This document shows, in pieces, positions 2,082 to 48,308 of a DNA stretch of 64,000 bases (its first letter is position 1; each line of letters begins with the position of its first letter). The notes beneath the pieces are model-generated. The model was not told the origin of the DNA. It did no database searches and saw only the letters and a program-made list of their open reading frames with translations. A program made the position numbers and the translations under genes. The stretch is from NCBI GenBank assembly GCA_948465545.1, contig CAOJXO010000003.1, positions 18,936-82,935 of the forward strand. Reading direction: 5' to 3'. The DNA is from an uncultured Bacillota bacterium (lineage in GTDB: Bacteria; Bacillota; Clostridia; Christensenellales; UBA1242).

Positions 2082-3029
2082 TTATATATAAGCAATCGAA
2101 AATACAAGATAATATAGTGCGGTTAAGGATAACATTTGCCCGCTTTTGATTTTATAATCGACCTCTTCAAGCAGAGAGTAAATCTTTTTAAGTTGCATTT
2201 TTGAGAAGTTGCCAACCTGCTCTCTCTGCTTTAAAATTGCATATTCTTTAACGCCTAAAAGTGAAGCAAGTTCGCCATTTGACATATCCGCAGATATTGC
2301 AATAAAGAAAAGTCTTCTAAAATGATTTGTGATAAGCCCCAATGTGCTTGGGTCTTTTTCCATTTGTGAAAGCAAGTTTAATGCCTTGTCTAGATTTCGT
2401 TTACCAAGAGCCTCAGTAAGTTCAAACACTGCAAACTCAACATTCTTATTGACAACCGTTTCAACAGTCTTTTTAGTAACTAAACTTTCGTGCATATCAT
2501 AGAAAACAAGCTTGTCAATTTCGTTCATAACATTTGTAAGATATCCATTACAGTAATCAAGCAAAACTTCCACTGCTTCCGCACTTATCTGCTTGCCACG
2601 CTTTGCAAGGTCATTTACAACAATGCTTCTTGCAATGGACTTATCCATACGTTTTGCATCCACAAATTCGCAAAGTTTTTGAATAGAAGCAAACTTATTA
2701 TTAAAATCTAAAATCAACAACACCGTGCTCTTACAGGGGTTTTTTAAGTAATTTTCAAGCAAATTCTTGTCATTTTCATTAATTTTTGTGATATTTTTCA
2801 CAATTACAAGCCTTTTGTTACTTCCCATCGGCAAAATCTCACAGGCATTAAGCACCGTTTGCATAGCAAAATTATCATCATCAAATACCGACTTGTTAAA
2901 GTCTTCAAGTTGAAGATCCATCGCTTTTGTAATCATAGACAAAGCCTTGTCAAAAAGATAGTAATCGTCACCGCTTACAAGATAACAAGGTTCAATTCTA
3001 GATTTTAAACGCGTCTTTAATGTTTTCAA
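2082..3029 (-). CDS. holA: DNA polymerase III delta subunit
   Basis: 315 aa. The N-terminus (CYLVSGDDYYL) and overall pattern are typical of HolA. The start overlaps the comEC stop, giving comEC-holA synteny as in Bacillus. Confidence 0.8.
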   Translation of the reverse strand: MKTLKTRLKSRIEPCYLVSGDDYYLFDKALSMITKAMDLQLEDFNKSVFDDDNFAMQTVLNACEILPMGSNKRLVIVKNITKINENDKNLLENYLKNPCKSTVLLILDFNNKFASIQKLCEFVDAKRMDKSIARSIVVNDLAKRGKQISAEAVEVLLDYCNGYLTNVMNEIDKLVFYDMHESLVTKKTVETVVNKNVEFAVFELTEALGKRNLDKALNLLSQMEKDPSTLGLITNHFRRLFFIAISADMSNGELASLLGVKEYAILKQREQVGNFSKMQLKKIYSLLEEVDYKIKSGQMLSLTALYYLVFSIAYI

Positions 3030-5116
3030 TCAATCCTCCAAACTCGGCAACCATTCTCCCCAAAAGTGAGTTTGATGTTACCATCACTTATATATGTAAG
3101 TTCCTCTATACGACCGCCCGATTTATAGTTTGTATACCCGTTCATATAGACAATATCAAAATCCTTGTAATAAAGATACTGGTTTAATTTGTCAATATCA
3201 TTATAACTCACAAACGAGAAACTAGCAACGAAAATTTGCCTTTGGTTAAAATTAATTTCAAATCCTAAAAACACATTTTCAACTTCAACATAATTAACCG
3301 TAAAATCACCTGCTTGAAGATAGGTGTTGGTTGTGACATTATAAATTAGACTTGTCCCCTCTTCGCTTAAAGCAAGTACACGCTTAACATTATATGTGTT
3401 TAAAAATTCAAGATCATATTCGCTAGGCAAGTCTTTCAAAAATAGATAGTCTATATTGCCAATCTTATTGTTGTAGAAAAAATCCTCCAAAGTATCCGTG
3501 TCAATTTCGTTATATAAAAGTGCCTTCTGCCCCGAGTCGGTTGAAAGCATAACCACCTCCATATTATAATCATTAATAGTGGTAACTGCCGCCTCGTTTT
3601 TAGGCGGAACAACATTGATAATAACTGAAACAATTAAAAGCAAACTCATAACACTTGCAGATACAAATTTTAGCGGACGCTTCATCATCACAAATCTACT
3701 TATCAAGAATATAATAAGGAAAAAGAAAATAATAAAAACAATATCATAAGCATAAAGCGAAATCTGTGAAGCAGAAGAAGAAAAGAAGCGTGCAACAGCG
3801 GTGGTAAAGTCAAAAACCAAATCAAACATCAAAAGCACCTTACCTATTGTAGGAATAAGTAGAAGTATTAAAATGGTAACCATAAGAAGCGGATACACTA
3901 TTGAGAATATCGGTACTATAATTAAGTTGGCAAAAAACGATAATAGATTAAAACTATTTAAAAACATCGCCGTAAATGGCAATATCCCAATCTGTGCCGA
4001 AAAGGTAAGTGCAAGGTAGCCCGCAATCTTATCTGGCATCACCTTTTTAAACACCTTCAAAAGTGGTTGATTTAACATAAAAATTGTTGCCACACATGCA
4101 AAACTCATCAAAAATCCAATGTCAAACGCATAAAGCGGCTTGATTAAAATAATAATGAACCCTGCAAGCCCAAGTGCATTTAATGGGTCATATTCCCTTC
4201 CACTAAGTTTCGCCAGCATCATGACTATTGCCATAAGACTGGCTCGCATAACTGATGGTGCAAAACCACACAGGATATTAAAAAGAAGCAATACAATAGA
4301 AGTAATAATTGTTGTGCTAATTCGCCCCAGTTTCAATTTTCGCAAAACAAAATAAATAAGTGCAATCAAAAATCCCACATGCAATCCAGAAACAGTAAGC
4401 ACATGAATGATACCTGAATTTTGATAATCCTCTTTTATTTCTTTATCAATCCCCGACTTGTCGCCAAACAGTACAGCGTAACATATCCCAGCATTATCCT
4501 CTGACATATTCTCACTAAGCATTTCTTTTACTTTAAGCCTAAATGCTTCGTCAAATTTTAGGTGGTTGTCAATCACTTGCACATTGCTTGTAGATGTGCT
4601 TGCTGTATAGCCAATGTTATTGCGAATATAGTAGGAATTAAATGAACCCAAATTGAAAATTTTAGTATTTTCTAAAACTGTGGTAAATGTAAGTTTATCG
4701 CCAGGATTAATTTCACTTTTGTCATCAATTTTGATGCTAAGACGAATATTTTTTGCACTTTCACCATTAATATAAACATCTTCAAGGGTAAGTGTATAAC
4801 TATTATTGTAATAACTGGTAATATCGTCAGTTACTCTGCCGATAACAAAATTTTGGCCTTCATAATATTTAGCCGAAACTTGTAAGTTGCCTAAAAAATA
4901 GAACCCATTACCTATCAAAAAGAACACAAGCACAATAATAAAACTTTTATAACGCTTGCAAGCAAATAAGGTTATTCCATATATTGCAAAAAGACTTACA
5001 ACAATAACTATTGATAAAATATCGCCAGCAAAAAGTTTTCTTGCCATAACAATCCCAAAAAGCAGGGCAAGAAAGGAATAAAATATGTATCTGAAATGAA
5101 AAAACTTCTTTTGCAT
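3026..5116 (-). CDS. comEC: DNA internalisation competence protein ComEC/Rec2 with a degenerate C-terminal domain
   Basis: 696 aa polytopic membrane protein with the competence-domain motif SGIIHVLTVSGLHVGFL. The C-terminal ~190 aa contain no histidine at all. Confidence 0.8.
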   Translation of the reverse strand: MQKKFFHFRYIFYSFLALLFGIVMARKLFAGDILSIVIVVSLFAIYGITLFACKRYKSFIIVLVFFLIGNGFYFLGNLQVSAKYYEGQNFVIGRVTDDITSYYNNSYTLTLEDVYINGESAKNIRLSIKIDDKSEINPGDKLTFTTVLENTKIFNLGSFNSYYIRNNIGYTASTSTSNVQVIDNHLKFDEAFRLKVKEMLSENMSEDNAGICYAVLFGDKSGIDKEIKEDYQNSGIIHVLTVSGLHVGFLIALIYFVLRKLKLGRISTTIITSIVLLLFNILCGFAPSVMRASLMAIVMMLAKLSGREYDPLNALGLAGFIIILIKPLYAFDIGFLMSFACVATIFMLNQPLLKVFKKVMPDKIAGYLALTFSAQIGILPFTAMFLNSFNLLSFFANLIIVPIFSIVYPLLMVTILILLLIPTIGKVLLMFDLVFDFTTAVARFFSSSASQISLYAYDIVFIIFFFLIIFLISRFVMMKRPLKFVSASVMSLLLIVSVIINVVPPKNEAAVTTINDYNMEVVMLSTDSGQKALLYNEIDTDTLEDFFYNNKIGNIDYLFLKDLPSEYDLEFLNTYNVKRVLALSEEGTSLIYNVTTNTYLQAGDFTVNYVEVENVFLGFEINFNQRQIFVASFSFVSYNDIDKLNQYLYYKDFDIVYMNGYTNYKSGGRIEELTYISDGNIKLTFGENGCRVWRID

Positions 5117-5279
5117 GGTAATATAAAACTTTCTGCATATAGTTTAATTGAAAAGCCCACGAAAAACAAAGAATTTTCGCGAATTAATTATTTTAAATTA
5201 AAAAAAAAATATTTTACCAAAAAACTATTGCAAAACAAGGTAATTTATGATAATATAAATATATACATTGGAGGGAACT

Positions 5280-6419
5280 ATGAGCAAAAAACAACAAGAA
5301 AAAATTAACAAAGCAAATCCAACGCTTAAAAATGGAAGCGAACAAAAGATGACAACAATTAAAACAAAACAATACAACAAACTTAGAAGTTTTAGATTTG
5401 CACGTACTTTTATCACAGCCTTAACAGTATTAACAATGTCTGTTTTTGTTGCCGTTGGCACAACTGCCTGTGATGTTCAAAACAACCCAAATCCAGGTCC
5501 TGGCATTGTAGAACCTGACAAACCAAATCCTCCAGACCCAGACCAGCCTGATAAACCAGACCCAGATCAACCCGATAAACCAGATCCAGACCAACCCGAT
5601 AAACCAGATCCAGACCAACCTGATAAACCAAATCCTCCAGACCCAGACCAGCCTGATAAGCCTGATATTGATTATGACAAACTCACCCCAGCAACCCTTA
5701 CTGCAGAGCAAAAAGCAACCATTGTAAACAATGTAACCACTGCCCTTGCAAAGAACATTCAAAGAAATATTGGTAACACTGGTGTTGTAAACAAAGTTGT
5801 TGCTGTTGACTTTGAAGGAAACTATGTAAAATTATTATTAGACTATCACAACAACTCATATGGTGATATGTACGGATTTTACAAGTATGAAATGAAAACC
5901 GAAATGAATTATAAAAACATATTGACCTCTGACATTTCCCCTGTAAGTAGCAACGGAAGAGGCACTCCTCTACTTGACGATTTCTCTCATACAGGCAATG
6001 ATACCCGTGTTAAAGAAGTTATGGCAAAACTCAATCCTAGCCTTAACATTGAGGAATGTGACTTTACAAGCATTGTCAACAATGGCGGTGCTATTGTTCC
6101 AGGAATAGGTGCTACACATGAAATTACAATTTACACACTTGATAATAATGGTATTATAAAAACCATAACAAATGCAAAAAGTGATGCAAATTATACCGAT
6201 CCTATTGGACAAGGAATTATCAATGGCGAACTTGGTAAAACTTATACAGAGCCAACTATTGAAAGTTTTGAACTCGGCGATTATGCACTGTACGATTTCA
6301 ATGGTCTTGAATCAGAGGTGGGGGCTACAGCACAAACTGCAACTTATGCATTCACAGTTGAAGGCAAAACTGCAGAAAGAATTAAAAATGGTAGATATTA
6401 CCAAGAAGAACAAGAATAA
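5280..6419 (+). CDS. membrane-anchored or secreted protein with a Pro/Asp-rich PDPDQPDK repeat linker
   Basis: GGAGGG RBS before the ATG at 5280 (the track ORF starts at a TTG at 5268). It has a basic N-terminus, then a hydrophobic segment ending VAVGTTAC, then the repeat linker and a beta-rich C-terminal domain. Confidence 0.6.
   Translation: MSKKQQEKINKANPTLKNGSEQKMTTIKTKQYNKLRSFRFARTFITALTVLTMSVFVAVGTTACDVQNNPNPGPGIVEPDKPNPPDPDQPDKPDPDQPDKPDPDQPDKPDPDQPDKPNPPDPDQPDKPDIDYDKLTPATLTAEQKATIVNNVTTALAKNIQRNIGNTGVVNKVVAVDFEGNYVKLLLDYHNNSYGDMYGFYKYEMKTEMNYKNILTSDISPVSSNGRGTPLLDDFSHTGNDTRVKEVMAKLNPSLNIEECDFTSIVNNGGAIVPGIGATHEITIYTLDNNGIIKTITNAKSDANYTDPIGQGIINGELGKTYTEPTIESFELGDYALYDFNGLESEVGATAQTATYAFTVEGKTAERIKNGRYYQEEQE
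5514..5666 (+). repeat. in-frame 24-bp tandem repeat (about 6 units) encoding (P-D-K-P-D/N-P-D/P-Q)n
   Basis: Directly visible: cctgataaaccagacccagatcaa and close variants are repeated head to tail. Confidence 0.9.
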
Positions 6420-6501: not shown

Positions 6502-8451
6502 ATGAAAAAATTTGCAAGAGTGATATGTGCTTTATTTATTTGCATGTTTGCCTTCCTAAGCGTAGGCTGCTTTGGCATTGGCTCAGACTCTGATTTTCAT
6601 GACATGCTTATAGAAATGTATAAAAATGGAGAAATCACACTTGAAGAACTTCAAGAACAACTTAAAAACTCTATGTCTACACCTATGTACGGGACAAAGG
6701 TACTATACCGCCCAGAGCATTATGATTATGATGGAGCAGTAGGCGAAGGTAATGAGGAATATTTCGGTCAATTTGCTTTTGTCATTTTGGATGCATTAAC
6801 TCGAACCTATGGAACTACTTCTTTAACAGATTATTTATCTCAACAACAACTAGATTTAGACTATTATAACAACACAAGCCAAAAATATTATTACGATTCA
6901 ATTCGTTATAATCTCTACTCGCAAGAAGAATATAATACAAAAATTATCTATGAAGAAGATGTAAATGGAAGCATTACTTATAATGGTAAGAAATATTCCG
7001 AGAAATGGAGCGAAAGCGATTTTGCAACAATCTCCATTAACACTGAAAACGCTTGGAATTGGACTTTTGGAGTTATTGCAAATCCTAACGGATATATAAT
7101 CAATGAAGAAAACAATATTTTGGGGACTTTAACACCTAGCATTAACGATATAACAACATCCACAAGATTGATTCAAAACTCTTATTACATCGATGGAAAT
7201 AGCAACGATTATTTTAACAACTTATCTATACATTATACCCAAAACCAAACTCAATATATCCTTTCATATCTGGGTACAGAATCACAGCAAGAAACTGAAA
7301 ACTATTCTGACTACGTAAAAGCCCTTGAATATGTGATTTACTGTATAACAATGGACTTAACCCCTGCAAACATAGATGTTACCATTAATGCTGACGGCAC
7401 ACCTAATGTAAAAATTGGTAACTTTGCAGATGTTGACTCCGCACTCACCTACATTAAAGAAGTGTTTGACAAAATTGGTACTTATGTTGGTGTGTCTACC
7501 GCTAAGGCTGAGCGAATTAAAGAATACATCCTAACAAATGTTATCGGTGCAAATGCATTAAACAACGATTCTGTTTCAATCACAAAATATGACACTGTGA
7601 AAGTATATCAAAATTCTGACGGCACTCAGCATACTGAAATTGTTGGTTCAACCATTTCAGAGCCTCCACTGCCTATCCATAGGGATTACGAAGGTGTGCT
7701 TAACAACATTTTCGATGCTATTTATAAAGACGTTCATATTGGAAGTGAAAGCGACGATACAATCAACAACCGCTACCCTGCTTCTGAAATTATTGATTAT
7801 TACGGAAACAATTTCTTCATATCTGCTGATAAAGAGTTTGCAAATATCAAGCCTCTTGAATATCAAAGTGCTGTACTGATGTTTAGTGAAGATGTTACCA
7901 TTGACAACCTTATGCTTCACTTTAAATATGATGCAGGGCTTGATGGCGACGACAATTATGACCCTAACGCATCAATCACAATCAATGTCTATGTAAACTT
8001 CTACGATCACAGTGAAAAGCGATATTATGAAAAATTGGTAAAGGAAACCATTGTTGTTAAAGATGGGCCTTTCGATTTTGGTAATGAAAATAATACCATG
8101 TGCTTATTCGGAATTGCACCTGTCAGAGGCGATGGTATTGAAATTGAAGCTTTTGAACCTGAAATAGGCAATGGCGTTATGAAAACAATGGAATATGATG
8201 GGCTCACAAGCATAAGTGACCCTATCCGCTTAATCGGTACTACCCAACTTAAAAACTACTACCAAATTGTAGAACCTAAGGAATCCACCCTCGACCAAAA
8301 TGTTTATTATAGTTACGGCATTCTTAATCCACTTCAATTTGCTGGCACTGACGGCTGTGACTATCTTGAAATTGCCTATGAAGTTATTAAAACTACTGGC
8401 GATGTTGATACAAACTACAAATTCTATACAGGTTTAGGTACGGTGGCATAA
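6502..8451 (+). CDS. lipoprotein of unknown function (649 aa)
   Basis: Signal peptide MKKFARVICALFICMFAFLSVGC with a classic L-S-V-G-C lipobox. The protein is Asn/Tyr/Thr-rich. No family recognised. Confidence 0.65.
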   Translation: MKKFARVICALFICMFAFLSVGCFGIGSDSDFHDMLIEMYKNGEITLEELQEQLKNSMSTPMYGTKVLYRPEHYDYDGAVGEGNEEYFGQFAFVILDALTRTYGTTSLTDYLSQQQLDLDYYNNTSQKYYYDSIRYNLYSQEEYNTKIIYEEDVNGSITYNGKKYSEKWSESDFATISINTENAWNWTFGVIANPNGYIINEENNILGTLTPSINDITTSTRLIQNSYYIDGNSNDYFNNLSIHYTQNQTQYILSYLGTESQQETENYSDYVKALEYVIYCITMDLTPANIDVTINADGTPNVKIGNFADVDSALTYIKEVFDKIGTYVGVSTAKAERIKEYILTNVIGANALNNDSVSITKYDTVKVYQNSDGTQHTEIVGSTISEPPLPIHRDYEGVLNNIFDAIYKDVHIGSESDDTINNRYPASEIIDYYGNNFFISADKEFANIKPLEYQSAVLMFSEDVTIDNLMLHFKYDAGLDGDDNYDPNASITINVYVNFYDHSEKRYYEKLVKETIVVKDGPFDFGNENNTMCLFGIAPVRGDGIEIEAFEPEIGNGVMKTMEYDGLTSISDPIRLIGTTQLKNYYQIVEPKESTLDQNVYYSYGILNPLQFAGTDGCDYLEIAYEVIKTTGDVDTNYKFYTGLGTVA

Positions 8452-8454
8452 TAA

Positions 8455-8488
8455 AAAAAGAAGAGGCAAAATCGCCCCTTCTTTTTTA
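8455..8488. terminator. bidirectional hairpin terminator between convergent genes
   Basis: aaaaaagaagaggc-aaaatc-gccccttctttttt, with A/T runs on both sides. Confidence 0.6.
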
Positions 8489-8761
8489 TTTTTTATCCTC
8501 GTTTTTACTATCATCTTCGATTGGTAATTCTTCACTTTCTTGCTGTTTCTCAGTTTCTTGAGTTTCCTCTTCCTGCTTGTCACCACTAGGCATTGTTACC
8601 ACCCCTAGCACAACAAGCACCCCTGCAACCGCCATTATAACGCCAGAAACAATCTGGTCGTCAATGGTGAAGCCGAAACATTTGCCAAGAGATTGCAAAA
8701 GCACAACCACCGCTCCAGATAATGCAGTCCAAAAACCATAGGATTTAAATCTGTTTTTCAT
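8486..8761 (-). CDS. phage holin (phi-LC3-like pattern)
   Basis: 91 aa. KSYGFWTALSGAVVVLLQSLGKCFGFTIDDQIVSGVIMAVAGVLVVLGVV gives two TM segments followed by an acidic tail. From memory this matches the phi LC3 holin family layout. Confidence 0.65.
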   Translation of the reverse strand: MKNRFKSYGFWTALSGAVVVLLQSLGKCFGFTIDDQIVSGVIMAVAGVLVVLGVVTMPSGDKQEEETQETEKQQESEELPIEDDSKNEDKK

Positions 8762-8978
8762 GGTTATCCTCCTTTAAGATATGTTCTTTAAGTTCAGTAA
8801 CCTCTTCTTTAACATCTTCAATTATCTGCAAATGTTCTGTGAGATTTTCAATAGTATCTTGATAAGCCTTTTCGCGTTTAGCACTATCTTTAAGTTGATA
8901 GAAGAAAAGAAAAACAAATAGTGTGGCAAAGACACCATTACTTACAACCACACTGATTATTTCATTCCAAAATTCCAT
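8745..8978 (-). CDS. BhlA/UviB-family holin-like protein
   Basis: 77 aa with a single N-terminal TM (VVSNGVFATLFVFLFFYQL) followed by KDSAKREKAY and a coiled-coil tail, as in BhlA/UviB. It overlaps the downstream holin start by 17 nt. Confidence 0.55.
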   Translation of the reverse strand: MEFWNEIISVVVSNGVFATLFVFLFFYQLKDSAKREKAYQDTIENLTEHLQIIEDVKEEVTELKEHILKEDNHEKQI

Positions 8979-9030
8979 ACTTAGCCTTATTCACCGAATT
9001 CACTTCTTCGTTTAAGATTGATTTCTTCAT
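8962..9030 (-). CDS. possible 22-aa leader ORF (MKKSILNEEVNSVNKAKYGILE) overlapping the bhlA-like start
   Basis: Very strong RBS AAAGAGGAGAAAATT-ATG. Its stop overlaps the BhlA-like ATG region. Too short for the ORF track. Confidence 0.3.
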   Translation of the reverse strand: MKKSILNEEVNSVNKAKYGILE

Positions 9031-9095
9031 AATTTTCTCCTCTTTAATCAAAACTGTTCTGTTTATAAATTTAATATGATTAAGATTGAAAACTA

Positions 9096-10583
9096 TCATC
9101 TCACGCTCATTGTAATATTGAAATTTGAAATCTTCCCTTCGCTGTCACTTTCGATTGTTACACGAAGTTGTCTTCCACTGATTCCACTTTTAATAACCTG
9201 CTTTTTATCATCTGCTGATATGTTGTACTCACGCATATCTCGCTCGGTTTCTAAAATCACCTTGCACTCTACATTCGCCTTAATTGTAAAAGAGTCTACC
9301 TTCTTAATCTTATCACCATAGCCATAGTCACTAAAAGCACTTTGCCAAATTTTATGAGTCTGCTCACCAAAAATAGAACCATTATGTATAAGTTCGCCAA
9401 TGTGACCGATATTGTCATTATTAAAACAAAGGGCAATCTTGCTTTTATACTCGTTGTTAAGTGCAAGCAACTGGTGGACGTCTACACCGCGTAAAAACTC
9501 CACACTCTTCTTATTGATGTCGTAAATTAAAATTGCATTGTTTATATACCCTTTTTCACTTGACTCACACCCTATTTTGTTGTCATCTTTAAAATCGACC
9601 TTACAAGCAAGGTAATATTTACCTTCAAAACATATCGCATTGCAATTTGTTTTATCTATAATCCTATTAAAGCAATCAAGGTCTAATCGCTTCACAGTAT
9701 TTCCGTTAAAACTATAAAATCCTTCTGTTGTCAAAAAGTAAACATTTTCGCCGTCAGAAGCAATAGAACCTGGATAGATATAACTTGTTGATTGAAAGAT
9801 GTGACTGATGCTGAATTTACCAGATGTTGAATAGGTTGACAGCCTTGTAATACCAAAATCTCTAAATATGTAGAGATAATCGTTAAAAGAAATCACCTTT
9901 GAAAGGTTACCACGCTCATCACTAAAATCAAGATGTTCGGTAACCCTATCATTCCATTCAAGTAGGTTTTGATTATCAGAATAAACAAGGCTTCGCCTTG
10001 CTGTGGCAGTAAGTGCATACATACGCTCATCATGGGTACAACAAGAACTCAATTTTGGTGCGTCAGGAAGATATTTATTATATCCACTTCCGTAAACATA
10101 AACGTCCCCATCAGATGCAGAGAACACCATGTAATCACTGCCATTAATTCGGCAACTCATACCAATAGGTGTTGATGTATAGTTGGACTCTAATATAAGT
10201 GGAACAGGACGCGACCAAAACAAATTGTCAAAAACAATCTGTGACTTATCGTTGAAGTAGAAAATGTAGTAGTTTAATATATTCCCCGCACGGTCAAGCC
10301 AAGAAAAACTCCACATGCTTCGCACTTCGTCGCCCTGCACCTCAATCAGACTTTCGTCATCAAGATTTGTTGTAGACATAGGCATCTGCAAATCACGCAC
10401 ACCATATCCTGTTGACAAACTGTTTCCGTCAAAAGAAAAATTATAAGATGTTACTGCAATATTATAGTCTATCTCTTCATCGTTTGAGTGAGAGTTCTGA
10501 CACTTTTCAAAAAGGTTAAATTTAAAAGTTTTAGTTTCTTTATCAGTGGCTACAATTTTGTTTTCATAAAACATTATAACCAC
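9096..10583 (-). CDS. phage structural protein, beta-rich/propeller-like (tail hub or nozzle candidate)
   Basis: 495 aa with repeated aromatic beta-strand motifs (DGDVYVYGSG, ERMYALTA, NDYLYIFRDFGITRL, GENVYFLTTEGFYSFNG, GKYYLACKV, NAILIYDINK). It sits downstream of the connector-like gene. Confidence 0.45.
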   Translation of the reverse strand: MVIMFYENKIVATDKETKTFKFNLFEKCQNSHSNDEEIDYNIAVTSYNFSFDGNSLSTGYGVRDLQMPMSTTNLDDESLIEVQGDEVRSMWSFSWLDRAGNILNYYIFYFNDKSQIVFDNLFWSRPVPLILESNYTSTPIGMSCRINGSDYMVFSASDGDVYVYGSGYNKYLPDAPKLSSCCTHDERMYALTATARRSLVYSDNQNLLEWNDRVTEHLDFSDERGNLSKVISFNDYLYIFRDFGITRLSTYSTSGKFSISHIFQSTSYIYPGSIASDGENVYFLTTEGFYSFNGNTVKRLDLDCFNRIIDKTNCNAICFEGKYYLACKVDFKDDNKIGCESSEKGYINNAILIYDINKKSVEFLRGVDVHQLLALNNEYKSKIALCFNNDNIGHIGELIHNGSIFGEQTHKIWQSAFSDYGYGDKIKKVDSFTIKANVECKVILETERDMREYNISADDKKQVIKSGISGRQLRVTIESDSEGKISNFNITMSVR

Positions 10584-11143
10584 CTCCTCCTAGAAAGTAT
10601 TGTTTTTGTCTTTTTGCGGAGTACAATCTTTAAACTATCTTTAAATCTATTTTCATAGATATATGCTTCATCAGTAAGCCCTTGCCTTAAATAGTACTCT
10701 CTTGCAACGCCATACGCACAAATTCGCTCTGAAAGATTAATTTCAATATCACCATCAATAGTTGCTTTGTTTGGTTTGTAAGAATATCGCACCCTAGCCT
10801 CATTTGCAAAAACCAAAATGTAGGTTGGAAATACTTTAAATTTCACCTCCCTACCCTTCAAATCGCAGATAGAAATAACTTCCTGCAACGGTTTTGACAA
10901 AGCAGATATATTAAGTTTAAAGTTTTGGATTTTAAACTCCTCTTCATGGATAAGAGGTTTATATTCACAGGCAATCTCATCTTGAACAAAGTTTAAACAG
11001 TCAAGATAAATATCCAGTTTTTTTCTCTCTTTCGCACTAAGGATTTCATCTAAAGTGGAAAGGTTTGCCTCGGTAAGTTTTTCGGCTATTTCATCATTTT
11101 CGCTAAACTGGCAAGCGATCCTGATTATTTCGTATCCTTTCAT
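10574..11143 (-). CDS. phage head-tail connector/adaptor-like protein
   Basis: 189 aa, positioned after the MCP. The C-terminal pattern ERICAYGVAREYYLRQGLTDEAYIYENRF resembles gp6-like connector proteins (from memory). Both ends overlap neighbouring ORFs. Confidence 0.4.
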   Translation of the reverse strand: MKGYEIIRIACQFSENDEIAEKLTEANLSTLDEILSAKERKKLDIYLDCLNFVQDEIACEYKPLIHEEEFKIQNFKLNISALSKPLQEVISICDLKGREVKFKVFPTYILVFANEARVRYSYKPNKATIDGDIEINLSERICAYGVAREYYLRQGLTDEAYIYENRFKDSLKIVLRKKTKTILSRRRWL

Positions 11144-11454
11144 GCGACTACCTCCATAATTTTTTCGGTGGCGGACTTAACAAGTGACCTTTGTAGTTTT
11201 TCGTTTGCTTCATCCATTTCCCTGATACACTCGGCTTGACGCTCTGCCCTAGTGCGACGTGCATAGCCTAGTGTGCGATCATCAAGTGCATCAAACCTTA
11301 CTGTAAAGCAATAACTATCTCCTATTTGCTCGGAAGAATGCACCTCATATTGTCCGCTCTTTTTGTTTAAAAGCACAAAGTATGATTTATCAATCTCTTT
11401 CAGCCTTTGACAAATAAACAAGGGATCATGTTCGATTAAAATATATTTTTTCAT
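11140..11454 (-). CDS. phage hypothetical protein (104 aa)
   Basis: Start set at an internal ATG (MKKYILIEHDP) preceded by a TAGGAGG RBS. The longer track ORF (to 11601) would overlap the capsid gene. Confidence 0.45.
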   Translation of the reverse strand: MKKYILIEHDPLFICQRLKEIDKSYFVLLNKKSGQYEVHSSEQIGDSYCFTVRFDALDDRTLGYARRTRAERQAECIREMDEANEKLQRSLVKSATEKIMEVVA

Positions 11455-11497
11455 GATTAACCTCCTAAAAAGGCAAAAGATTGAAATCTTTTGCCTT

Positions 11498-12703
11498 TTA
11501 AACGTTTTCAGGAATGTAAGTTTTGTAAGGATCTTCAACAGTAAATTTAATGTTAGAGATTTTGCCTTGTCCGAAAGGTTTGTCACACATAAGTTCTGCA
11601 TATTTCACAAGCGTTGCAGAATATGTTGGATAGCCAGGTTTTTGTCTAATCACCTTTCCACCTTCCCCTTCAATCCAGTTCCAGTCAGCAAGTTGATGTA
11701 TTGTGAAGTCATCAGTGTTAAGTAAATACATAGAGTGTTCCTCAATAAATCTATCAGCATATACAGGAATACCGTTGTGAGAGATCGTCTTAATTCCATT
11801 GCCAATGTCAACAATATCAACATTCTTACGGTAGATGTTAAGATATTGTTGATATGCCCTACGAGCAGCCCTTGAAGTTGCAATAAAGTTTACCTGAGAG
11901 TCTGCGTTTTCTTCCAAGAAGTCGATTGCACTTTGGATACGGATATCAGAGATTTCTCCTTCCTCAGAATCCACATAAGCATTAAGCCAGTTGTAATCTT
12001 TCTTGTTAAGTCCATATAACTTGTCGCCAGTAAAGAGTGCCTCAATACCAGTAAGTTCCCTGCCCTTAGAACCTTGAACATACATTTGTCTGTTTGCAGC
12101 AACAAAGTCAGAACCCCAACGTTGATCGTATTTAAACTTGTTATTTACTCTGTCAAGAGAAGTAATTTTAATTGCTGTTTCGCATGCTTTTACATCATTG
12201 TTGTAAAGGTCAACAAGCATACCTTCCATTAAGTTTCTAACGGTATCACAAACAAAGTTGCCATTTACCGTATCAACTGTTGTGATTTTTGCAAGAAGTC
12301 CAGTACCTGTGCCATAAAGCATTCTGTTAAGATTGAAAGTGCAAGATTTTACAAGGTTTTCCATTTCATTTGAAAGTAAGTTTACGAATGCACCTGCATT
12401 GCTTGCAGAAGCCCTTACAGCCTTATCAGATATTTCAAAAACACCATAAAGGTTTTTAAGTGTTGAGCGAAGTTGAACAAAATCACTTGCAGAAGATTCA
12501 GGAAGTGACTCAGTTTCGCTACCAGCGCCAAAACCGCCATTTATACCATAAGGTGCGGCTTTAACAATTTCTTTGCCGAAAATATTGCTTGAAGATTGTT
12601 TAATCTTTGCAAAAAGAGGGCTGGTTGCAACGTTAAGTTGATTTGCAATCACACCAAGATAAACCTCTTTTAAAGCGTTTTCAGCGGTTTGTAATGTAAC
12701 CAT
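11498..12703 (-). CDS. phage major capsid protein (HK97-fold type, no delta domain)
   Basis: 401 aa located directly after a scaffold gene. The N-terminus MVTLQTAENALKEVYLGVIANQLNVATSPLFAKIK and the overall pattern are typical of Firmicutes phage MCPs. Confidence 0.75.
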   Translation of the reverse strand: MVTLQTAENALKEVYLGVIANQLNVATSPLFAKIKQSSSNIFGKEIVKAAPYGINGGFGAGSETESLPESSASDFVQLRSTLKNLYGVFEISDKAVRASASNAGAFVNLLSNEMENLVKSCTFNLNRMLYGTGTGLLAKITTVDTVNGNFVCDTVRNLMEGMLVDLYNNDVKACETAIKITSLDRVNNKFKYDQRWGSDFVAANRQMYVQGSKGRELTGIEALFTGDKLYGLNKKDYNWLNAYVDSEEGEISDIRIQSAIDFLEENADSQVNFIATSRAARRAYQQYLNIYRKNVDIVDIGNGIKTISHNGIPVYADRFIEEHSMYLLNTDDFTIHQLADWNWIEGEGGKVIRQKPGYPTYSATLVKYAELMCDKPFGQGKISNIKFTVEDPYKTYIPENV

Positions 12704-12723
12704 AATTTTCTCCTTTTTTGTTT

Positions 12724-13371
12724 TTAACTAAATAATTTTTCCACCCTAGCCTTTGCTTCTTTTAAAGAAGTAGGAGTGTCAGGCACTGTGCTTGACACTC
12801 TTTCCCCTTTTTGAGAAGAAATGATAATAGGTGAATTTTGCCCTTTAAGAGCATCGAGATAGTTTTCAACTACCTTTTGTTTAATCTCGTCACTTGATAA
12901 AATGTAACGATTTATTATAGGGTCACTAGCCTTTTGCCCTGAAACATGGCTAAGCACAACCTTAGCCCATGCCAAATCAAATGGGCTTGCAACCTTTTGC
13001 AGTGATGGGTCTGACTCAACCAGATCTTTAATCTCATCAGCATACACTGCTGCTTCACCATTTTTAGAAAGGAACTGGGAAAACTGTTCGTCCAGATTTT
13101 GTTCTAACACAGTTTCTTCGGTTTTATCTTTTTCAAGTTGGCTTAGCTTTTGACATTTCTTTGTAAATTCGGCTTGCAAGTTTGTGTATGCTTCCAGCAG
13201 TGCAGAAGCAGACTTAAACTTACCAAACTCACCTTCATCGGGTCTTTCAACTTGTCGATATTCAATGTCGTTATTTTGAGAGCCAGCCTCACTTACAGCA
13301 CTATCCCCCTCTGTTTCAATCGAAACATTTGCCAGTTCCTCTGCTGGTTGTTCTCTAAGTTCGTTATCCAT
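12724..13371 (-). CDS. phage scaffolding protein
   Basis: 215 aa, acidic and helical. The motif GKFKSASALLEAYTNLQAEFTKK resembles those recurring in phage scaffold proteins. It lies between portal and MCP. Confidence 0.65.
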   Translation of the reverse strand: MDNELREQPAEELANVSIETEGDSAVSEAGSQNNDIEYRQVERPDEGEFGKFKSASALLEAYTNLQAEFTKKCQKLSQLEKDKTEETVLEQNLDEQFSQFLSKNGEAAVYADEIKDLVESDPSLQKVASPFDLAWAKVVLSHVSGQKASDPIINRYILSSDEIKQKVVENYLDALKGQNSPIIISSQKGERVSSTVPDTPTSLKEAKARVEKLFS

Positions 13372-13372
13372 A

Positions 13373-15226
13373 TTAATTCTCCTTTTTATATTCGTTCTTA
13401 TGCGTCTTTATATGCTCTAAGAATATTGTTTCAAGTTTAGGATTTTTCACCTTCGCGTTCTCAAAATCCATACCAAGCATAAAAGAAATGTGCTCGTTGA
13501 TATGAAGTTCATGATTATCAATCTCACTCACTTTCACATTCACCCCATCAAGCATTTTAAGATTTTCATTGCCTGCACGCTTGATATGTAGGTCACTTAT
13601 ATCTTGTGAGTTTTCCCAAGTGCCAAGTCCAAGCATTTCAAGAATTTTACTTTTCATACTGGTTGTAAGTTTACCTTCTTCATCTGACAGAACCCCCGCA
13701 TTAAGAAGATTAAATATCATTTCTCTGCGTTGAATTAAAGAATCACCAAGGTCTGACTGAACATCAACAACAACATCATCACTTGAAATGTCGTTTGATG
13801 AAAAGTAGAACATATCAATTTGACCATTCTCACCAATAATTCTGGCAAGTCTAGGGAAAAGAGCATACTGCTTATACAGCCTTAAAATTCGTTTTGCAAT
13901 ATTTAATGATGCTGTTTTTATACTCTCCGATGTAGTATTAAGCCTTGTTTCATCTTGCCCTATCATAAGTTCAAGGGCTGTACCACTCATGTTTGCGTTC
14001 ACATAATCAGTGCCAAGTGTTTCACTTACACCGCTGATTTTGTTAAATTCATTAAGAAGTTTTTCTTCTTCATCAGCAAATCCAGACGGAATAGCCTCCC
14101 CAGAAAGATATTTTGGCTCACTTGCCCCCTGCCTATATACCAGCACCTTACCGGGACAAAGTCCATCTTCTTCCAAATTTTCAAGGTCAACCGAGCCATC
14201 TTCAACACTAAGCACACCAAGTGTAAGGCGATTGATAAACTCATGCTTACGGTTTTTCACTGCATTGTATGCCCTTTGCACGGGTATCAATCTTTCAATT
14301 ACACTACTTCCCCAGAAACTGCCTGGCTCTGACAAACTTACCTGTCTAATGAAAGGAAAATCACGTTTGCCGTCGCTTCCACATTTATATGGAAGTTCGC
14401 CATCATAAACAAGATTGTCCCCAGCAACAATAATAAGTCTGCCGTTTGGGTACTCACTATTTGGACGAATGTATTTTTCAAGGACTAAAACACTGTCATG
14501 TTTTGTTGATTCAATAAGTTTTGTTGCTGTGGCATTATATCCAAGCCCACCTATTCCGCTTACTACATTATCAAGGCTATAACAGTTGATATTTTGCCCC
14601 TCAACATCTATACCATAGATACTTTTAACTTCACCTGCAGAATATGCCCTTGCATGAATAATACTTTCACAATCTTCAAGGCTTTCTCTGGTTGCAGAGT
14701 CAGGGAAGATTTCAAATGGACTAACCACCGTCACTTCCACTTCGCCACTTCTAATCTCACCGCCATCTTCATCTTCAGCGATAAGTTGTCCCTTTTGGCT
14801 ATCCCAGCAAACCTTATAGAATGATGTTCCACACACCTCACTCCACTTGATTGCCTGATTAATCTTGTCATCTATGCCAAGTTTATAGTAAACAGAATCA
14901 ATAATCTTTTTAGATACCTTTGCGGTTTGTTTGTCACGCTCATCCCCAGTTGCAGGAAGAACAGAAAACTTAGGTTTCGTTTTTGACAACTTGGCTGTTC
15001 TTATATCAAATATAGGTGCAACATGATTGAATATTTCACGCTCCTGCCAGAAGTATTGCTTGTCCGCCTCTTCTAAGAGTCCGCCATATCCTATGTTGCA
15101 ATATTGATTTCCCATAAGGAAATTCATATTCACCTGCCAAGATGTTTCAAAAGGCTTTTTAGCCTGTTGCCTTTGTTTAAAATCTTCAATAACTTCTTCT
15201 ACTATTGTTTTCGCTTTACTTTTCAT
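13373..15226 (-). CDS. phage portal protein
   Basis: 617 aa. The N-terminal pattern SWQVNMNFLMGNQY...NHVAPIFDIRTAKL...VLPATGDERDKQTA is characteristic of portal proteins. It sits upstream of the scaffold and MCP genes. Confidence 0.75.
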   Translation of the reverse strand: MKSKAKTIVEEVIEDFKQRQQAKKPFETSWQVNMNFLMGNQYCNIGYGGLLEEADKQYFWQEREIFNHVAPIFDIRTAKLSKTKPKFSVLPATGDERDKQTAKVSKKIIDSVYYKLGIDDKINQAIKWSEVCGTSFYKVCWDSQKGQLIAEDEDGGEIRSGEVEVTVVSPFEIFPDSATRESLEDCESIIHARAYSAGEVKSIYGIDVEGQNINCYSLDNVVSGIGGLGYNATATKLIESTKHDSVLVLEKYIRPNSEYPNGRLIIVAGDNLVYDGELPYKCGSDGKRDFPFIRQVSLSEPGSFWGSSVIERLIPVQRAYNAVKNRKHEFINRLTLGVLSVEDGSVDLENLEEDGLCPGKVLVYRQGASEPKYLSGEAIPSGFADEEEKLLNEFNKISGVSETLGTDYVNANMSGTALELMIGQDETRLNTTSESIKTASLNIAKRILRLYKQYALFPRLARIIGENGQIDMFYFSSNDISSDDVVVDVQSDLGDSLIQRREMIFNLLNAGVLSDEEGKLTTSMKSKILEMLGLGTWENSQDISDLHIKRAGNENLKMLDGVNVKVSEIDNHELHINEHISFMLGMDFENAKVKNPKLETIFLEHIKTHKNEYKKEN

Positions 15227-15440
15227 TTTTCTTCAACCTCTTATTTAATTTAAACGGACTTTCCACCGCTTTTGGCACTCTTATCTTTGCCACACAATCA
15301 TAAATTTCATCTAAACATTCTCGGCACAAACAAATGTCATGGCGAAGTAATCCACGTTTCACAATGGAATAATCCGCAACATTTTTGCAACCTGAAAAGT
15401 CACATTTCACTTTGTGCTTGCACTCATAAATTTCCACCAT
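15216..15440 (-). CDS. small Cys-rich (zinc-ribbon-like) protein
   Basis: 74 aa with clustered cysteines (C7, C13, C18, then CLCRECLDEIYDC). It overlaps both neighbouring ORFs. Confidence 0.45.
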   Translation of the reverse strand: MVEIYECKHKVKCDFSGCKNVADYSIVKRGLLRHDICLCRECLDEIYDCVAKIRVPKAVESPFKLNKRLKKNEK

Positions 15441-15714
15441 CTTCCTCCTTTATAAGTTTTAATAGTCGCGACCGCTCTTTAAGTAATTCTTCATCACTCA
15501 TATTGCGAATCTCATCAGCCATGTCAGAAGAGTATCTTTCCAACAAGACCCTCATGGCACTAATATCAGGGCTTACATGTTTTTTTGTGACCTTCTTTTT
15601 TGCAAGCCTTTGCCCACCATCTTCATCAAGCACATATTCCTCAACAACCTCGTTAGTACGGTAGCCAAGTGCCTTTTTTAATAGAGCCTTTCTAATCTTC
15701 TCCTCCTCTTCCAC
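15424..15714 (-). CDS. terminase small-subunit-like protein
   Basis: Start reassigned to the GTG at 15714, preceded by AGGAGG plus a 5-nt spacer. ALGYRTNEVVEEYVLDEDGGQRLAKKKVTKKHVSPDISAMRVLLERY resembles the common small-terminase motif ALGY..EE......K.tkKh.pPd..a....LkNR (from memory). Confidence 0.45.
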   Translation of the reverse strand: MEEEEKIRKALLKKALGYRTNEVVEEYVLDEDGGQRLAKKKVTKKHVSPDISAMRVLLERYSSDMADEIRNMSDEELLKERSRLLKLIKEEDGGNL

Positions 15715-15741
15715 ATATGCCTCCTGCGACTTTATAGCCAC

Positions 15742-15771
15742 ATTATATTAGCCTGTTAGCAGAATATTCAA
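15742..15771 (-). promoter_or_regulatory. sigma-A-type promoter for the phage-derived cluster
   Basis: Minus strand reads TTGAAT-N18-TATAAT just upstream of the RBS and GTG of the first gene. Confidence 0.5.
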
Positions 15772-15852
15772 TAAACACTGCCAAAAAAAATGACAAACTC
15801 TATCACACTTTTGAAATTAAAATATAGAATGGTATTGTAGAGGTAAACAAAG

Positions 15853-44311: not shown

Positions 44312-45016
44312 TTAGTTTTCAGATAAAATGTCTACCACAGCAAGCAGGGCTACCGACGCCGTATCACAACGAAGAATCCTTGCCCCTAAACTTACCGATT
44401 TTACCTTGTCATTTGTTTTTTTAATTGCCTCTGCCTCTTCCAGCGAAAAACCACCTTCCGCACCAATGATAACAGCAATGCTTCCCTTGCTCTTCAAGTC
44501 TGTTATGTTAAATTTATCAGACGAATGCTCGTTTGCAAATATAACCATATCATAATCTGATAATTCTTTCAATACCTTTTCAAAAGATAAAACATCACTC
44601 ACTGGCACTAACTTGCTTCGTTCACATTGCTTGCAGGCGGTAAGAACAATCTGCTCCACCCTTTCCCGCTTAAAGTCATGATTCACAGAGAACTGACTTG
44701 CAAAAGGACGAATCTCACTTACCCCCAACTCCACAGACTTTGTGACAATGGTTTCAAAATATTCACGCTTAGGCATAGCTTGATAAAGCACAATGTTCTT
44801 TTTAGGAAGTGCCCTGCATTTTTCCACCCTGCCAATCTTTGCAACCACACTTTTCTTGTTGACTTCAATAAGGGTGCAATAATAATCATTTTCATCATTG
44901 AGGGAGGCGATAATTTCCTGCCCCACCTTCATACGTAAAACTTGGGCAATGTGTCCTGCCTCATTGCCCTCAAAAATAATATTTTCTCCAAGTTTTTTGC
45001 CAAAAAATCTTTTCAT
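44312..45016 (-). CDS. rsmE: 16S rRNA (uracil1498-N3)-methyltransferase RsmE
   Basis: 234 aa. The HIAQVLRMKVGQ N-terminus and IGAEGGFS C-terminal motif are typical of RsmE. Confidence 0.82.
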   Translation of the reverse strand: MKRFFGKKLGENIIFEGNEAGHIAQVLRMKVGQEIIASLNDENDYYCTLIEVNKKSVVAKIGRVEKCRALPKKNIVLYQAMPKREYFETIVTKSVELGVSEIRPFASQFSVNHDFKRERVEQIVLTACKQCERSKLVPVSDVLSFEKVLKELSDYDMVIFANEHSSDKFNITDLKSKGSIAVIIGAEGGFSLEEAEAIKKTNDKVKSVSLGARILRCDTASVALLAVVDILSEN

Positions 45017-45052
45017 GAAATTAGTATAACGCTTTTGGGCATCTATTGCAAA

Positions 45053-45640
45053 CTAATTCACAAAATGCTTAATAAAACTTTCTCTGTGTATTTTTGTTTT
45101 ACCGTACTTTTTTAAAACCTCAATATGAGCCTTTGTGCCATAACCTTTGTGTTTTGCAAATCCATACTCGGGATACTTTTCATCAAGGCTCACCATAAGC
45201 CTATCACGGTGCACCTTTGCAAGGATTGAAGCAGACGCAATATTGTAAGAAAGTGCGTCACCTTTAATGATGTTATCTTGTGGCAAGTCGGTGTCAATTT
45301 TAACAGCATCAATAAGAACAATGTCTGGCATAACATCCAAACTTTCAAGAGCCTTTTTCATACCCAGCCTTGTTGCTTGCAAAATATTAATTTCGTCAAT
45401 CTTCTTTTCGTCAATCTCAACAATAGAATAAGCAACAGCAGTGTTAATTATTTTTTTATATAACTCTTCACGCTTTTTTGCAGAAAGTTTTTTGCTGTCA
45501 TTAATGCCATCTATAATTTTGTCAGAGTCTATAGGCATAATAACACAGGCACAAACAACAGGCCCAGCAAGTGGACCTCTTCCCGCCTCATCAATCCCTG
45601 CAATTATCTTACCTTTGTATTTCTTTTCATAATCTAACAT
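45053..45640 (-). CDS. rnhB: ribonuclease HII
   Basis: GIDEAGRGPLAGPVV and DSKKLS motifs. Confidence 0.9.
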   Translation of the reverse strand: MLDYEKKYKGKIIAGIDEAGRGPLAGPVVCACVIMPIDSDKIIDGINDSKKLSAKKREELYKKIINTAVAYSIVEIDEKKIDEINILQATRLGMKKALESLDVMPDIVLIDAVKIDTDLPQDNIIKGDALSYNIASASILAKVHRDRLMVSLDEKYPEYGFAKHKGYGTKAHIEVLKKYGKTKIHRESFIKHFVN

Positions 45641-45729
45641 ATTTACATTTTAACACATCTTCAATAAAATTCAAAATTTAACATTGAAAAACAAAGTTCT
45701 TATGTTATAATAAAAATAAGGAGTGCAAT

Positions 45730-46422
45730 ATGCAAAAAATATCAAAAAGAGCCATATTTAATTTTGAAGAATCAGATAGCACACTAATAAATGAATTAAG
45801 TGACTACTTAGATGATGACAAAAACATCGTACCTATTTACGAATTCTTTGAGGTTGAAGAACCTGATAAAAAAATAAAAATAGAAATCGTACCGACAAAA
45901 AAAGAATATGACGAAAAATTCAAAGTGTTAGGCAATTATCCTCCTGACTATATTGTTCAAGATTGGATGATAGGCTGTTTTAATTCAACGAAGAACAAAA
46001 TTTTGTATTTATCTTTAAATGACTATAAAAACACATCGCATGCCTTCAAACCAGACGATTATGATAAAGCACTTAACCATTTCAAAAAAACAATCGTACA
46101 CGAATACGTACACTACGTCACCGAACTTTTTGCAAAAAAACACAATTGTGGCTGGAGAGCAAAATACATATCAGAAGGTCTTGCAATCTGCCTAAGCCAT
46201 CAAAAAGATGATATGAAACTTAAGTTTAACTATCATCTTGATGAAATTATAAATGGTAATGCACATTACAATGCTTATTATTTACTCACAAAATATCTTA
46301 TAGAAAACTATGACAAATCGTTTACATTTAAACTTATTGAAAGTAACCGAAAAGCACACGAATTTCTAAAAGATGAATTATATGATAAAGTAAATAAATT
46401 GTATAACCAAGAAAATATATAA
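45730..46422 (+). CDS. hypothetical protein with an HExxH motif (putative metallopeptidase-like)
   Basis: 230 aa containing IVHEYVHYVTE. AAGGAG RBS. No signal peptide. Confidence 0.45.
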   Translation: MQKISKRAIFNFEESDSTLINELSDYLDDDKNIVPIYEFFEVEEPDKKIKIEIVPTKKEYDEKFKVLGNYPPDYIVQDWMIGCFNSTKNKILYLSLNDYKNTSHAFKPDDYDKALNHFKKTIVHEYVHYVTELFAKKHNCGWRAKYISEGLAICLSHQKDDMKLKFNYHLDEIINGNAHYNAYYLLTKYLIENYDKSFTFKLIESNRKAHEFLKDELYDKVNKLYNQENI

Positions 46423-46425
46423 AAA

Positions 46426-46446
46426 ATAACGGATTAATCCGTTATT
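46426..46446. terminator. bidirectional terminator aataacgga-tta-tccgttatt
   Basis: Perfect palindrome flanked by A6 and T7 runs, between convergent genes. Confidence 0.8.
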
Positions 46447-46448
46447 TT

Positions 46449-47645: not shown

Positions 47646-47652
47646 CGTCCCC

Positions 47653-47946: not shown

Positions 47947-48080
47947 TATACCACCTCAAAATGTATTTTTCTAACAAAATAAAACTTTTTTATTCTGTTT
48001 ATTGAATAATTATTAAACCAAGAATCATGAATTTGCAATAATGTATGTCAAAAATATAAAAATAAGCAAATTTGCAGTAA

Positions 48081-48124
48081 ACAAAAAAAATAACGGAGAT
48101 TAGTCGCTTACTTTTGAAACTAGC
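48081..48124 (+). repeat. left arm of an imperfect inverted repeat (ACAAAAAAAATAACGGA-N15-TTTGAAACTAGC)
   Basis: Its reverse complement recurs at 49204-49246 with identical 15-nt spacing. Confidence 0.75.
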
Positions 48125-48275: not shown

Positions 48276-48308
48276 ACACTAGAAAAATAGAGAGAAGAAA
48301 ACAAAAGC

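Follow-up and report, generated by a model that had tools for sequence, protein, structure and literature searches.

A conserved podovirus-type operon on the chromosome of gut Clostridia as a candidate gene transfer agent-like particle system

The stretch of DNA analysed here, called the window (64,000 nucleotides (nt) of contig CAOJXO010000003.1, from an uncultured bacterium of the Christensenellales), carries an intact and tightly packed operon of phage-type genes at 8486-15783 on the minus strand, which runs from position 15783 downwards from a promoter through a terS-like gene to a holin gene. Fixed synteny, co-divergence with the host and purifying selection strongly favour the first of two readings offered in a preliminary description of this DNA, a domesticated, capsid-forming element resembling a gene transfer agent (GTA). 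That the operon belongs to a selected, vertically inherited, phage-derived particle system can be stated with high confidence. The full GTA-type explanation, in which a domesticated podovirus-derived viriform also packages host DNA, is somewhat better than an even proposition. The operon is regarded as neither a remnant nor a mobile element because its gene order and site are fixed, its divergence follows that of the host, its ratios of nonsynonymous to synonymous substitution rates (dN/dS) are low, and no related complete phage was found in GenBank.

All ten co-oriented open reading frames (ORFs) described previously are present on the minus strand with zero frameshifts, and all operon coordinates below refer to that strand. 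Their junctions overlap or nearly abut, as had been noted; a recount finds five overlapping junctions among the ten ORFs rather than six, and seven when a 45-amino-acid (aa) ORF is counted in. The encoded proteins are, in order, a TerS-like protein, a Zn-ribbon protein, a P22-type portal, a probable scaffolding protein, the major capsid protein (MCP), a 104-aa conserved protein, a candidate head-to-tail adaptor, a tail nozzle, the 45-aa product, a BhlA/UviB-family holin-like protein and a phi-LC3-type holin. The earlier term "head module" is too narrow: AlphaFold2 modelling and Foldseek comparison identify the 492-aa protein as a podovirus tail nozzle, and the block therefore comprises a head, a tail stub and holins in P22/T7 order. 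The proposed T7-type layout is accordingly refined to T7/P22-type, with the beta-rich protein as the nozzle. Rather than the gene set of a complete P22/T7-like prophage, the block contains only morphogenesis and holin genes between housekeeping flanks.

Relatives of the MCP are found in at least 261 species-level genomes, all from uncultured gut Clostridia; one genome per species was scanned. Submitters labelled many of the carriers as Christensenella, Christensenellaceae or Christensenellales, and public data hold at least 5473 MCP homologues, many on contigs longer than 100 kb. Synteny was compared over the 80 best loci, with both ends of the cluster visible in 59 genomes. The same cluster does occupy the same locus in relatives, a comparison that had been proposed from the outset: the ten-gene order is identical in all 59, and the neighbours in most are those of the window, usually rluA-pepF-u334-ABC transporter on one side and comEC-holA on the other, the latter sometimes preceded by a lipoprotein gene. 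Portal and MCP genes are intact in 58 of the 59 genomes.

Divergence of the operon closely follows that of the chromosome around it. Across 50 genomes, distances computed from portal, MCP and nozzle correlate with those of the host proteins encoded next to the operon (r = 0.89, slope 1.09, intercept ~0, Mantel p = 0.001), and the correlation with ComEC plus HolA, encoded on the other flank, is similar (r = 0.87). Protein identity across carriers declines to ~53%, in step with host genes. The dN/dS values, calculated by the Nei-Gojobori method for 14 genome pairs, lie between 0.01 and 0.3 for nearly all genes and exceed 0.5 for none, and the flanking housekeeping genes behave alike. The second of the earlier readings, a recently truncated and decaying podovirus prophage, draws on the P22/T7-like order and on the lack of lysogeny, replication and fibre genes, but it is hard to reconcile with genes that are all intact, an identical order at an invariant locus in 59 of 59 genomes whose identity to ~53% tracks host genes, dN/dS values far below 1, and the absence of both an integrase and, in GenBank, any related complete phage. 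It is the least probable of the explanations weighed here, close to being discounted.

Searches among phages point in the same direction. Near-identical complete podoviruses, whose existence would have changed the picture, were not found: a megablast search of the block against GenBank phages was empty, and tblastn of the MCP against the same phages recovered only actinophage and environmental capsids at 22-27% identity. IMG/VR holds nine "viral" contigs with MCP relatives, and their gene order is that of the chromosomal cluster wherever the flanks suffice for comparison. Virus-prediction tools flag this chromosomal block as viral. A small free phage was also considered, since ~16-kb contigs with a distant MCP recur; these turned out to be chromosomal copies of the minimal contiguous form of the cluster described below.

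Deeper-branching relatives (L061, L063, L069, L070, L099 and L108) have a longer, contiguous cluster that lies between housekeeping genes and includes TerL. This form begins with an activator of 181-197 aa, a divergently transcribed protein of 228-285 aa, TerL and often a variable protein of 750-830 aa. It continues with the TerS-like protein, Zn-ribbon protein, portal, scaffold, MCP, small protein, adaptor candidate and nozzle, and ends with a DUF7934 protein, sometimes preceded by a 380-aa protein, and then BhlA and holin. The DUF7934 gene, located between the nozzle and BhlA genes, is present in some lineages only. A minimal contiguous form in L122 consists of TerL, an 81-aa protein, portal, scaffold, MCP, two small proteins, nozzle and BhlA. 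A reduced contiguous form is seen in L120 (GCA_965329145.1), with TerL, portal, a 143-aa protein, MCP, a 186-aa protein, a 421-aa protein and a DUF7934-like protein; genes for the TerS-like protein, Zn-ribbon protein and holin are not called there.

TerL in these relatives is a protein of 476-489 aa with Terminase_6N and Terminase_6C domains. It is the most conserved component of the system, with an identity plateau of 70-95% and at least 5015 homologues, suggesting that DNA packaging is central to function. The activator matches Sigma70_r4_2 (E-value 1.1e-6), the "transcriptional activator" families phrog_36 and phrog_248 and, weakly, DUF1492, a Pfam family that corresponds to RinA-type activators. 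These matches suggest a RinA/ArpU-like activator of the sigma-region-4 kind. RinA-type late-gene activators precede packaging genes in Firmicute phages. The protein following TerL varies by lineage, with DUF285/BspA-type leucine-rich repeats in L086 (1.3e-138) and M26_N-like and InlB B-repeat domains in L061. Such domain turnover would be expected of a receptor-binding protein, for which this protein is a candidate.

In other relatives the two parts of the cluster lie apart. TerL, activator and divergent partner occupy a separate groES-groEL-proximal locus in L082, L086 and L121, with no head genes within 10 kb, and the variable protein usually follows TerL at this site; the locus of L121 (GCA_054298215.1) is without the fibre-like gene. 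The head operon, in turn, stands beside the ABC transporter without TerL within 10 kb in 50 species. Most economically, these arrangements would derive from a contiguous ancestral element that has split into at least two loci in the lineage of the window, as in known GTAs. The earlier statement that packaging and adsorption functions are missing thus holds for the locus itself but is overstated for the element, as TerL, the activator and usually a receptor-binding-like protein are present in relatives. The apparent absence of these functions is probably a consequence of viewing a single locus.

For the cluster and its flanks, Pfam and PHROGs scans confirm that the cluster lacks TerL, fibre, lysin, integrase and replication genes. 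The 64-kb window as a whole contains no TerL, tRNA gene, integrase, replication gene or endolysin, and the window gave no tblastn match to the activator or its divergent partner, to either of two TerL variants, to the fibre-like proteins or to DUF7934. A terL just beyond the annotated cluster, another possibility raised at first, was found neither in the window nor in the 10 kb past its right end, a region that was read from other assemblies sharing the last gene of the window and that contains only housekeeping and sporulation genes.

One explanation compatible with this absence is an orphaned operon, in which the lineage has lost TerL and the remaining genes are kept for a packaging-free role or make use of the terminases of infecting phages. 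The 50 species without TerL within 10 kb and the reduced variants in L120 and L121 lend it some support, as does the lack of TerL in and beside the window. However, few genes of the split-type genomes are as constrained as those for the TerS-like protein and the portal (dN/dS 0.01-0.08), which would be odd without a cognate terminase; isolated TerL loci at the groESL site are present in related low-GC genomes; and homologue numbers are similar for TerL (at least 5015) and MCP (at least 5473). Loss of the terminase is therefore judged quite unlikely.

A helper-dependent satellite, akin to capsid-forming phage-inducible chromosomal islands (cf-PICIs) and hijacking the TerL and tails of a helper, had also been suggested. 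Like the present operon, cf-PICIs are chromosomal, encode their own capsid genes and lack tails, and a satellite would account for a locus with capsid genes and neither TerL nor fibres. The differences are that cf-PICIs are mobile and helper-dependent, encode their own terminase and carry an integrase together with genes for regulation and replication. The window has no integrase, excisionase, primase or other replication gene, no att-like repeats and no tRNA gene; the operon's fixed chromosomal site and host-matched divergence are unlike those of a mobile island, and the cognate TerL is chromosomal in relatives. A satellite origin is consequently very improbable.

If the operon does belong to a GTA-like system, its working can be sketched by analogy with P22-type assembly and known GTAs. 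The terminase, activator and fibre genes of this genome would sit elsewhere on the chromosome. Upon induction, the activator would switch on the late genes, and capsid and scaffold would assemble procapsids on the portal. TerL would act with the TerS-like protein, in which no DNA-binding domain was detected, to package largely non-specific host DNA by the headful, after which the adaptor and nozzle would seal the portal and the variable protein would provide adsorption. BhlA and the holin would release the particles from a lysing subpopulation, with an endolysin encoded elsewhere or supplied by the host.

The closest functional parallel is FpGTA of Faecalibacterium prausnitzii, a podovirus-like GTA encoded by two operons 125 kb apart (PMC12946183, Nat Commun 2026). 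Its particles are ~40 nm in size, carry ~8.5-9 kb of host DNA and are released by lysis; the genes specify a TerS without DNA-binding domain, TerL, portal, HK97 capsid and tail nozzle, and no replication genes (PMC12946183). A TerS without DNA-binding domain accompanies non-specific packaging in both RcGTA and FpGTA (PMC12946183). The same study reports GTA-type packaging in metagenome-assembled genomes (MAGs) of Christensenellales, with packaged lengths of ~6.3 kb in QANA01 and ~4.1 kb in HGM11616, and names no cluster for them (PMC12946183).

FpGTA and the present element are both chromosomal podovirus-type GTA-like systems of gut Clostridia. Both have a nozzle gene in the head operon (RCH50846.1 of FpGTA is annotated as tail nozzle), and FpGTA resembles the split relatives in distributing its genes over two loci. 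Compared by annotation, the capsid proteins differ: that of FpGTA (RCH50849.1) is assigned to the N4-gp56 family, whereas the MCP here belongs to NF033394 and matches no N4-gp56 model at E <= 0.1. The portal-capsid interval contains a Prp-like protein in FpGTA and the 215-aa scaffold candidate here. In FpGTA, TerL is part of operon I, and holin, endolysin and fibres are part of operon II, whereas in the present system TerL is detached and the holin genes come last in the head operon. The two systems thus appear analogous but do not appear to be the same family, a separation drawn from the annotations.

Instead of transferring genes, a domesticated particle might kill or interfere with other cells as PBSX does, mediate programmed lysis or release, or act as a decoy against related phages, with any packaged DNA being incidental. 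The evidence for domestication fits this explanation equally well, and Pfam and PHROGs searches recognised neither a plug nor ejection or internal-core proteins, which makes DNA delivery conjectural; the FpGTA authors voice the same caveat for their system (PMC12946183). On the other hand, the tail is a podovirus stub without the contractile or membrane-puncturing apparatus of tailocins and PBSX, no component is better conserved than the terminase (70-95% identity), and GTA-type packaging of host DNA has been reported in this very bacterial order (PMC12946183). A particle without gene transfer is therefore the strongest competitor, although still an unlikely one.

A GTA function including the packaging of host DNA remains the favoured explanation, and a more specific proposal can be made from it, tentatively and at slightly less than even chances. 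In this proposal the operon and the detached terminase, activator and fibre locus constitute the genetic basis of the ~4-6-kb host-DNA packaging in human-gut Christensenellales, and this Christensenellales GTA is ancient, order-wide and vertically inherited, was domesticated independently of FpGTA and has retained a phage-type late activator.

Several points weigh against the GTA explanation. The tie between the operon and the published packaging events in Christensenellales is circumstantial. TerL, activator and fibre-like gene were not found for this genome in the 64-kb window or, in other assemblies, in the 10 kb past its right end. The split two-locus architecture has been pieced together from different genomes, not seen with both loci in one; the dnaK overlaps of TerL loci and head loci are only ~75% identical, and the compared loci therefore come from different species. 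Every genome used is a MAG or a metagenome contig. Family searches recognised no endolysin, no plug or needle protein and no ejection protein. Two structural assignments, the probable scaffold of 215 aa and the candidate head-to-tail adaptor of 189 aa, follow from gene position alone.

Beyond FpGTA, the operon shares features with several better-known systems. RcGTA and other alphaproteobacterial GTAs are likewise vertically inherited and under purifying selection, and their multi-locus organisation under cellular control, TerS without DNA-binding specificity and holin-dependent lysis of a subpopulation would be further likenesses. These properties of RcGTA are established knowledge (Sherlock et al. 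2019). RcGTA differs in being siphovirus-like, with a tail tube and tape measure, in belonging to another phylum and other protein families, and in its regulation by CtrA/GafA rather than by a late activator of phage type. PBSX of Bacillus subtilis is similar in its Gram-positive, defective-phage origin and in holin/XhlA-type lysis genes related to the BhlA family. PBSX particles package ~13 kb of host DNA. Unlike the present element, PBSX is myovirus-like with a contractile tail, acts as a killer without DNA delivery and has a complete, contiguous late operon that includes TerL and endolysin. Podoviruses of the P22, Pa223, SU10 and T7 types share the order of terminase, portal, scaffold, capsid, adaptor and nozzle, the P22-type portal and the nozzle fold; they differ in their replication, lysogeny, ejection-protein, needle and tailspike modules, none of which is present here, and in that the present element is fixed in the chromosome. 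The present cluster was not found described in literature searches.

For a long time nearly all known GTAs came from Alphaproteobacteria, and FpGTA (2026) is the first podovirus-like GTA of gut Firmicutes. The present system offers a concrete candidate for the packaging genes of Christensenellales and apparently represents a second, independent capsid lineage. If the proposal is true, a gut clade that is heritable and associated with health would possess, as an ancient and built-in trait, the exchange of chromosomal DNA by way of capsids, and a compact set of ~12-15 genes, including a dedicated activator, would be available for studying induction, packaging and delivery.

The TerS-like ORF (15424-15741) opens at GTG 15741, and its true start is most likely GTG 15714, giving a protein of 96 aa. 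An AGGAGG ribosome-binding site lies 5 nt upstream of GTG 15714, which is preferred because GTG 15741 abuts the -10 hexamer, and gene calls in relatives are 91-96 aa. The earlier terS-like label is retained in a weaker form: the match to the terS family phrog_309 (1e-5) involves only the C-terminal part of the profile, at positions 195-242 of 319. Family searches detected no DNA-binding domain, and dN/dS is 0.02-0.08. The 74-aa Zn-ribbon protein (15216-15440) is confirmed as such by four invariant cysteines (C13, C18, C39 and C42 in 32 homologues); its gene is intact in 59 of 59 genomes, with dN/dS of 0.01-0.07.

Profile searches uphold both the portal and the capsid assignments. The 617-aa portal (13373-15226) matches PF16510 (1.4e-19) and phrog_156 (3.3e-37) and is strongly constrained (dN/dS 0.01-0.06). 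The 401-aa MCP (11498-12703) matches the NCBIfam model NF033394, capsid_maj_Podo (1.5e-65), and phrog_14242 (1.5e-41), with dN/dS of 0.01-0.16. An AlphaFold model of the MCP built from a shallow alignment (predicted local distance difference test score (pLDDT) 61) finds HK97-fold capsids in Foldseek, namely Mic1, SU10, A-1(L) and Pa223; these matches back an HK97 fold only, and not a specific lineage or T number. Between portal and capsid lies the gene for the 215-aa probable scaffolding protein (12724-13371), which has no family match in Pfam, PHROGs or NCBIfam. It occupies this interval in every locus and is the fastest-evolving core gene (dN/dS 0.05-0.34).

A terminator-like hairpin, read from the sequence at 11467-11498, separates the capsid gene from the 104-aa gene and consists of a 12-bp stem, a 6-nt loop and a T run. 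A consensus terminator scan did not call it. Its position after the capsid gene resembles that of the partial terminator (Tphi) after T7 gene 10, and it may act in a similar way.

The 104-aa conserved protein (11140-11454) has no family or PDB match. Its gene holds the same position in relatives and is intact in 54 of 59 genomes (dN/dS 0.03-0.5); its product is a candidate head-completion or connector protein. The 189-aa gene (10574-11143) lies immediately upstream of the nozzle gene in all loci, the slot of P22 gp4 and T7 gp11, and is intact in all 59 genomes with dN/dS of 0.04-0.26. The protein has no family match, and its family profile shows no similarity to T7 gp11 (by hhalign) or to any PDB chain.

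The nozzle or hub protein (9096-10583), of the P22 gp10 and T7 gp12 class, was described as a beta-rich ORF of 495 aa; it is present and beta-rich, but ATG 10574 is its likely start, which yields 492 aa. Its AlphaFold2 model, based on 67 homologues, has a pLDDT of 86.9 and a predicted template modelling score (pTM) of 0.87. The top Foldseek match in the PDB is the Pa223 tail (9nwi_Y, E 3.5e-20, template modelling (TM) scores 0.73/0.71), followed by VP1, GP4, SU10, the P22 tail complex and T7 gp12. Matches in BFVD include proteins annotated as P22 Gp10, and PHROGs returns phrog_3287 (3.7e-7). The gene is intact in 59 of 59 genomes, with dN/dS of 0.05-0.11. On this modelled structure the protein is assigned as a podovirus tail nozzle.

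The gap between the nozzle and bhlA genes is filled by a 45-aa ORF (8962-9099) that the preliminary description missed. Its sequence begins MIVFNLNHIKFINRTVLIKEEK; it starts on an ATGA overlap shared with the nozzle stop, and its last 17 nt lie within bhlA. Homologous ORFs of 35-46 aa (MKIIYxNHIxLI...) are present in this gap in 50 of 58 related loci. The two holin assignments are sustained. The 77-aa BhlA/UviB-family protein (8745-8978) matches PF10960 (5.7e-18) and phrog_2429 (9.9e-15). The 91-aa holin of the phi-LC3 or Phage_holin_1 type (8486-8761) matches PF04531 (9.8e-6, above the family cut-off), phrog_297 (5.9e-12) and, below the family cut-off, TIGR01598 (4.6e-7). In several strains of one species (L109-L118) the holin is either a 98-aa protein overlapping bhlA or a displaced 79-aa ORF, and the remaining operon is identical, suggesting that the holin varies or is truncated between strains.

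The operon promoter (15742-15783) consists of a TGGCA box, 7 nt, TTGAAT (-35), 18 nt and TATAAT (-10). The TTGAAT-N18-TATAAT element proposed earlier is found at 15771-15742 and is conserved in relatives, where the TGGCA box also lies 7 nt upstream of the -35 hexamer. Of 57 split-type loci, 50 have the pattern TG[GT]CA-N6/7-TTG at a distance of 66-97 nt upstream of terS, compared with an average of 0.4 in shuffled controls. Within the window alone, the TGGCA motif has 4 matches against 1.2 expected, a number reached in 8 of 100 shuffles, and this enrichment is not significant. A sigma-54 reading of the box was considered and ruled out, as the spacing to TTG is 7 nt instead of 6 and a canonical TATAAT lies 17-18 nt past the -35 hexamer.

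The promoter of hrcA-grpE-dnaK in the window (54299-54339, minus strand), which has a CIRCE element downstream, shares its upstream layout with the head-operon promoter at 15742-15783: an A/T-rich stretch, TGGCA, 7 nt, TTGA, ~18-21 nt and TATAAT. The same layout is seen in L082 (17598-17638) and L086 (17491-17531), with TAGAAT as the -10 hexamer, and a TGTCA variant lies upstream of the activator gene in both. This likeness could reflect a shared regulator, or merely the usual form of strong promoters in the clade.

The surroundings of the operon are ordinary chromosome without an integrase, in agreement with the view that it is embedded among chromosomal genes with no recombinase nearby. One flank encodes HolA, ComEC, a 383-aa protein and a 649-aa lipoprotein-like protein; the other encodes the ABC transporter, PepF, a pseudouridine synthase, methyltransferases and IleRS. 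The remaining window contains housekeeping genes, including hrcA-grpE-dnaK-dnaJ, with a single exception, a DUF4417/nuclease-like gene. A PADLOC search for defence systems gave no match.

Between the holin gene and comEC lie the genes for the 649-aa lipoprotein-like protein (6502-8451, plus strand) and the 383-aa protein (5268-6419, plus strand), neither of which has a family match. The lipoprotein gene stands beside the cluster in most genomes, at 30-58% identity and evolving faster. Its absence from several genomes and its variable orientation make it a probable neighbour rather than a part of the system. The comEC gene itself (3026-5116, minus strand) belongs to the comEC-holA pair that adjoins the operon in most genomes; the species of L109-L118 is without comEC at this place. 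Uptake of RcGTA DNA by recipient cells requires ComEC, and the adjacency of operon and comEC may be coincidental.

A low-GC patch at 45000-49000 (0.29-0.31, compared with ~0.36 elsewhere) contains the DUF4417 / phrog_940 nuclease-like ORF (46449-47645, minus strand) and small ORFs, and could represent a distinct islet with a mobile or defence role. SpoIVA and sporulation-type sigma factors are encoded by the organism (L104/L105, covering the 10 kb past the window's right end, and L101). Around der-plsY-spoIVA the window's genome and its relatives do not share the same gene order, indicating a large rearrangement near the cluster.

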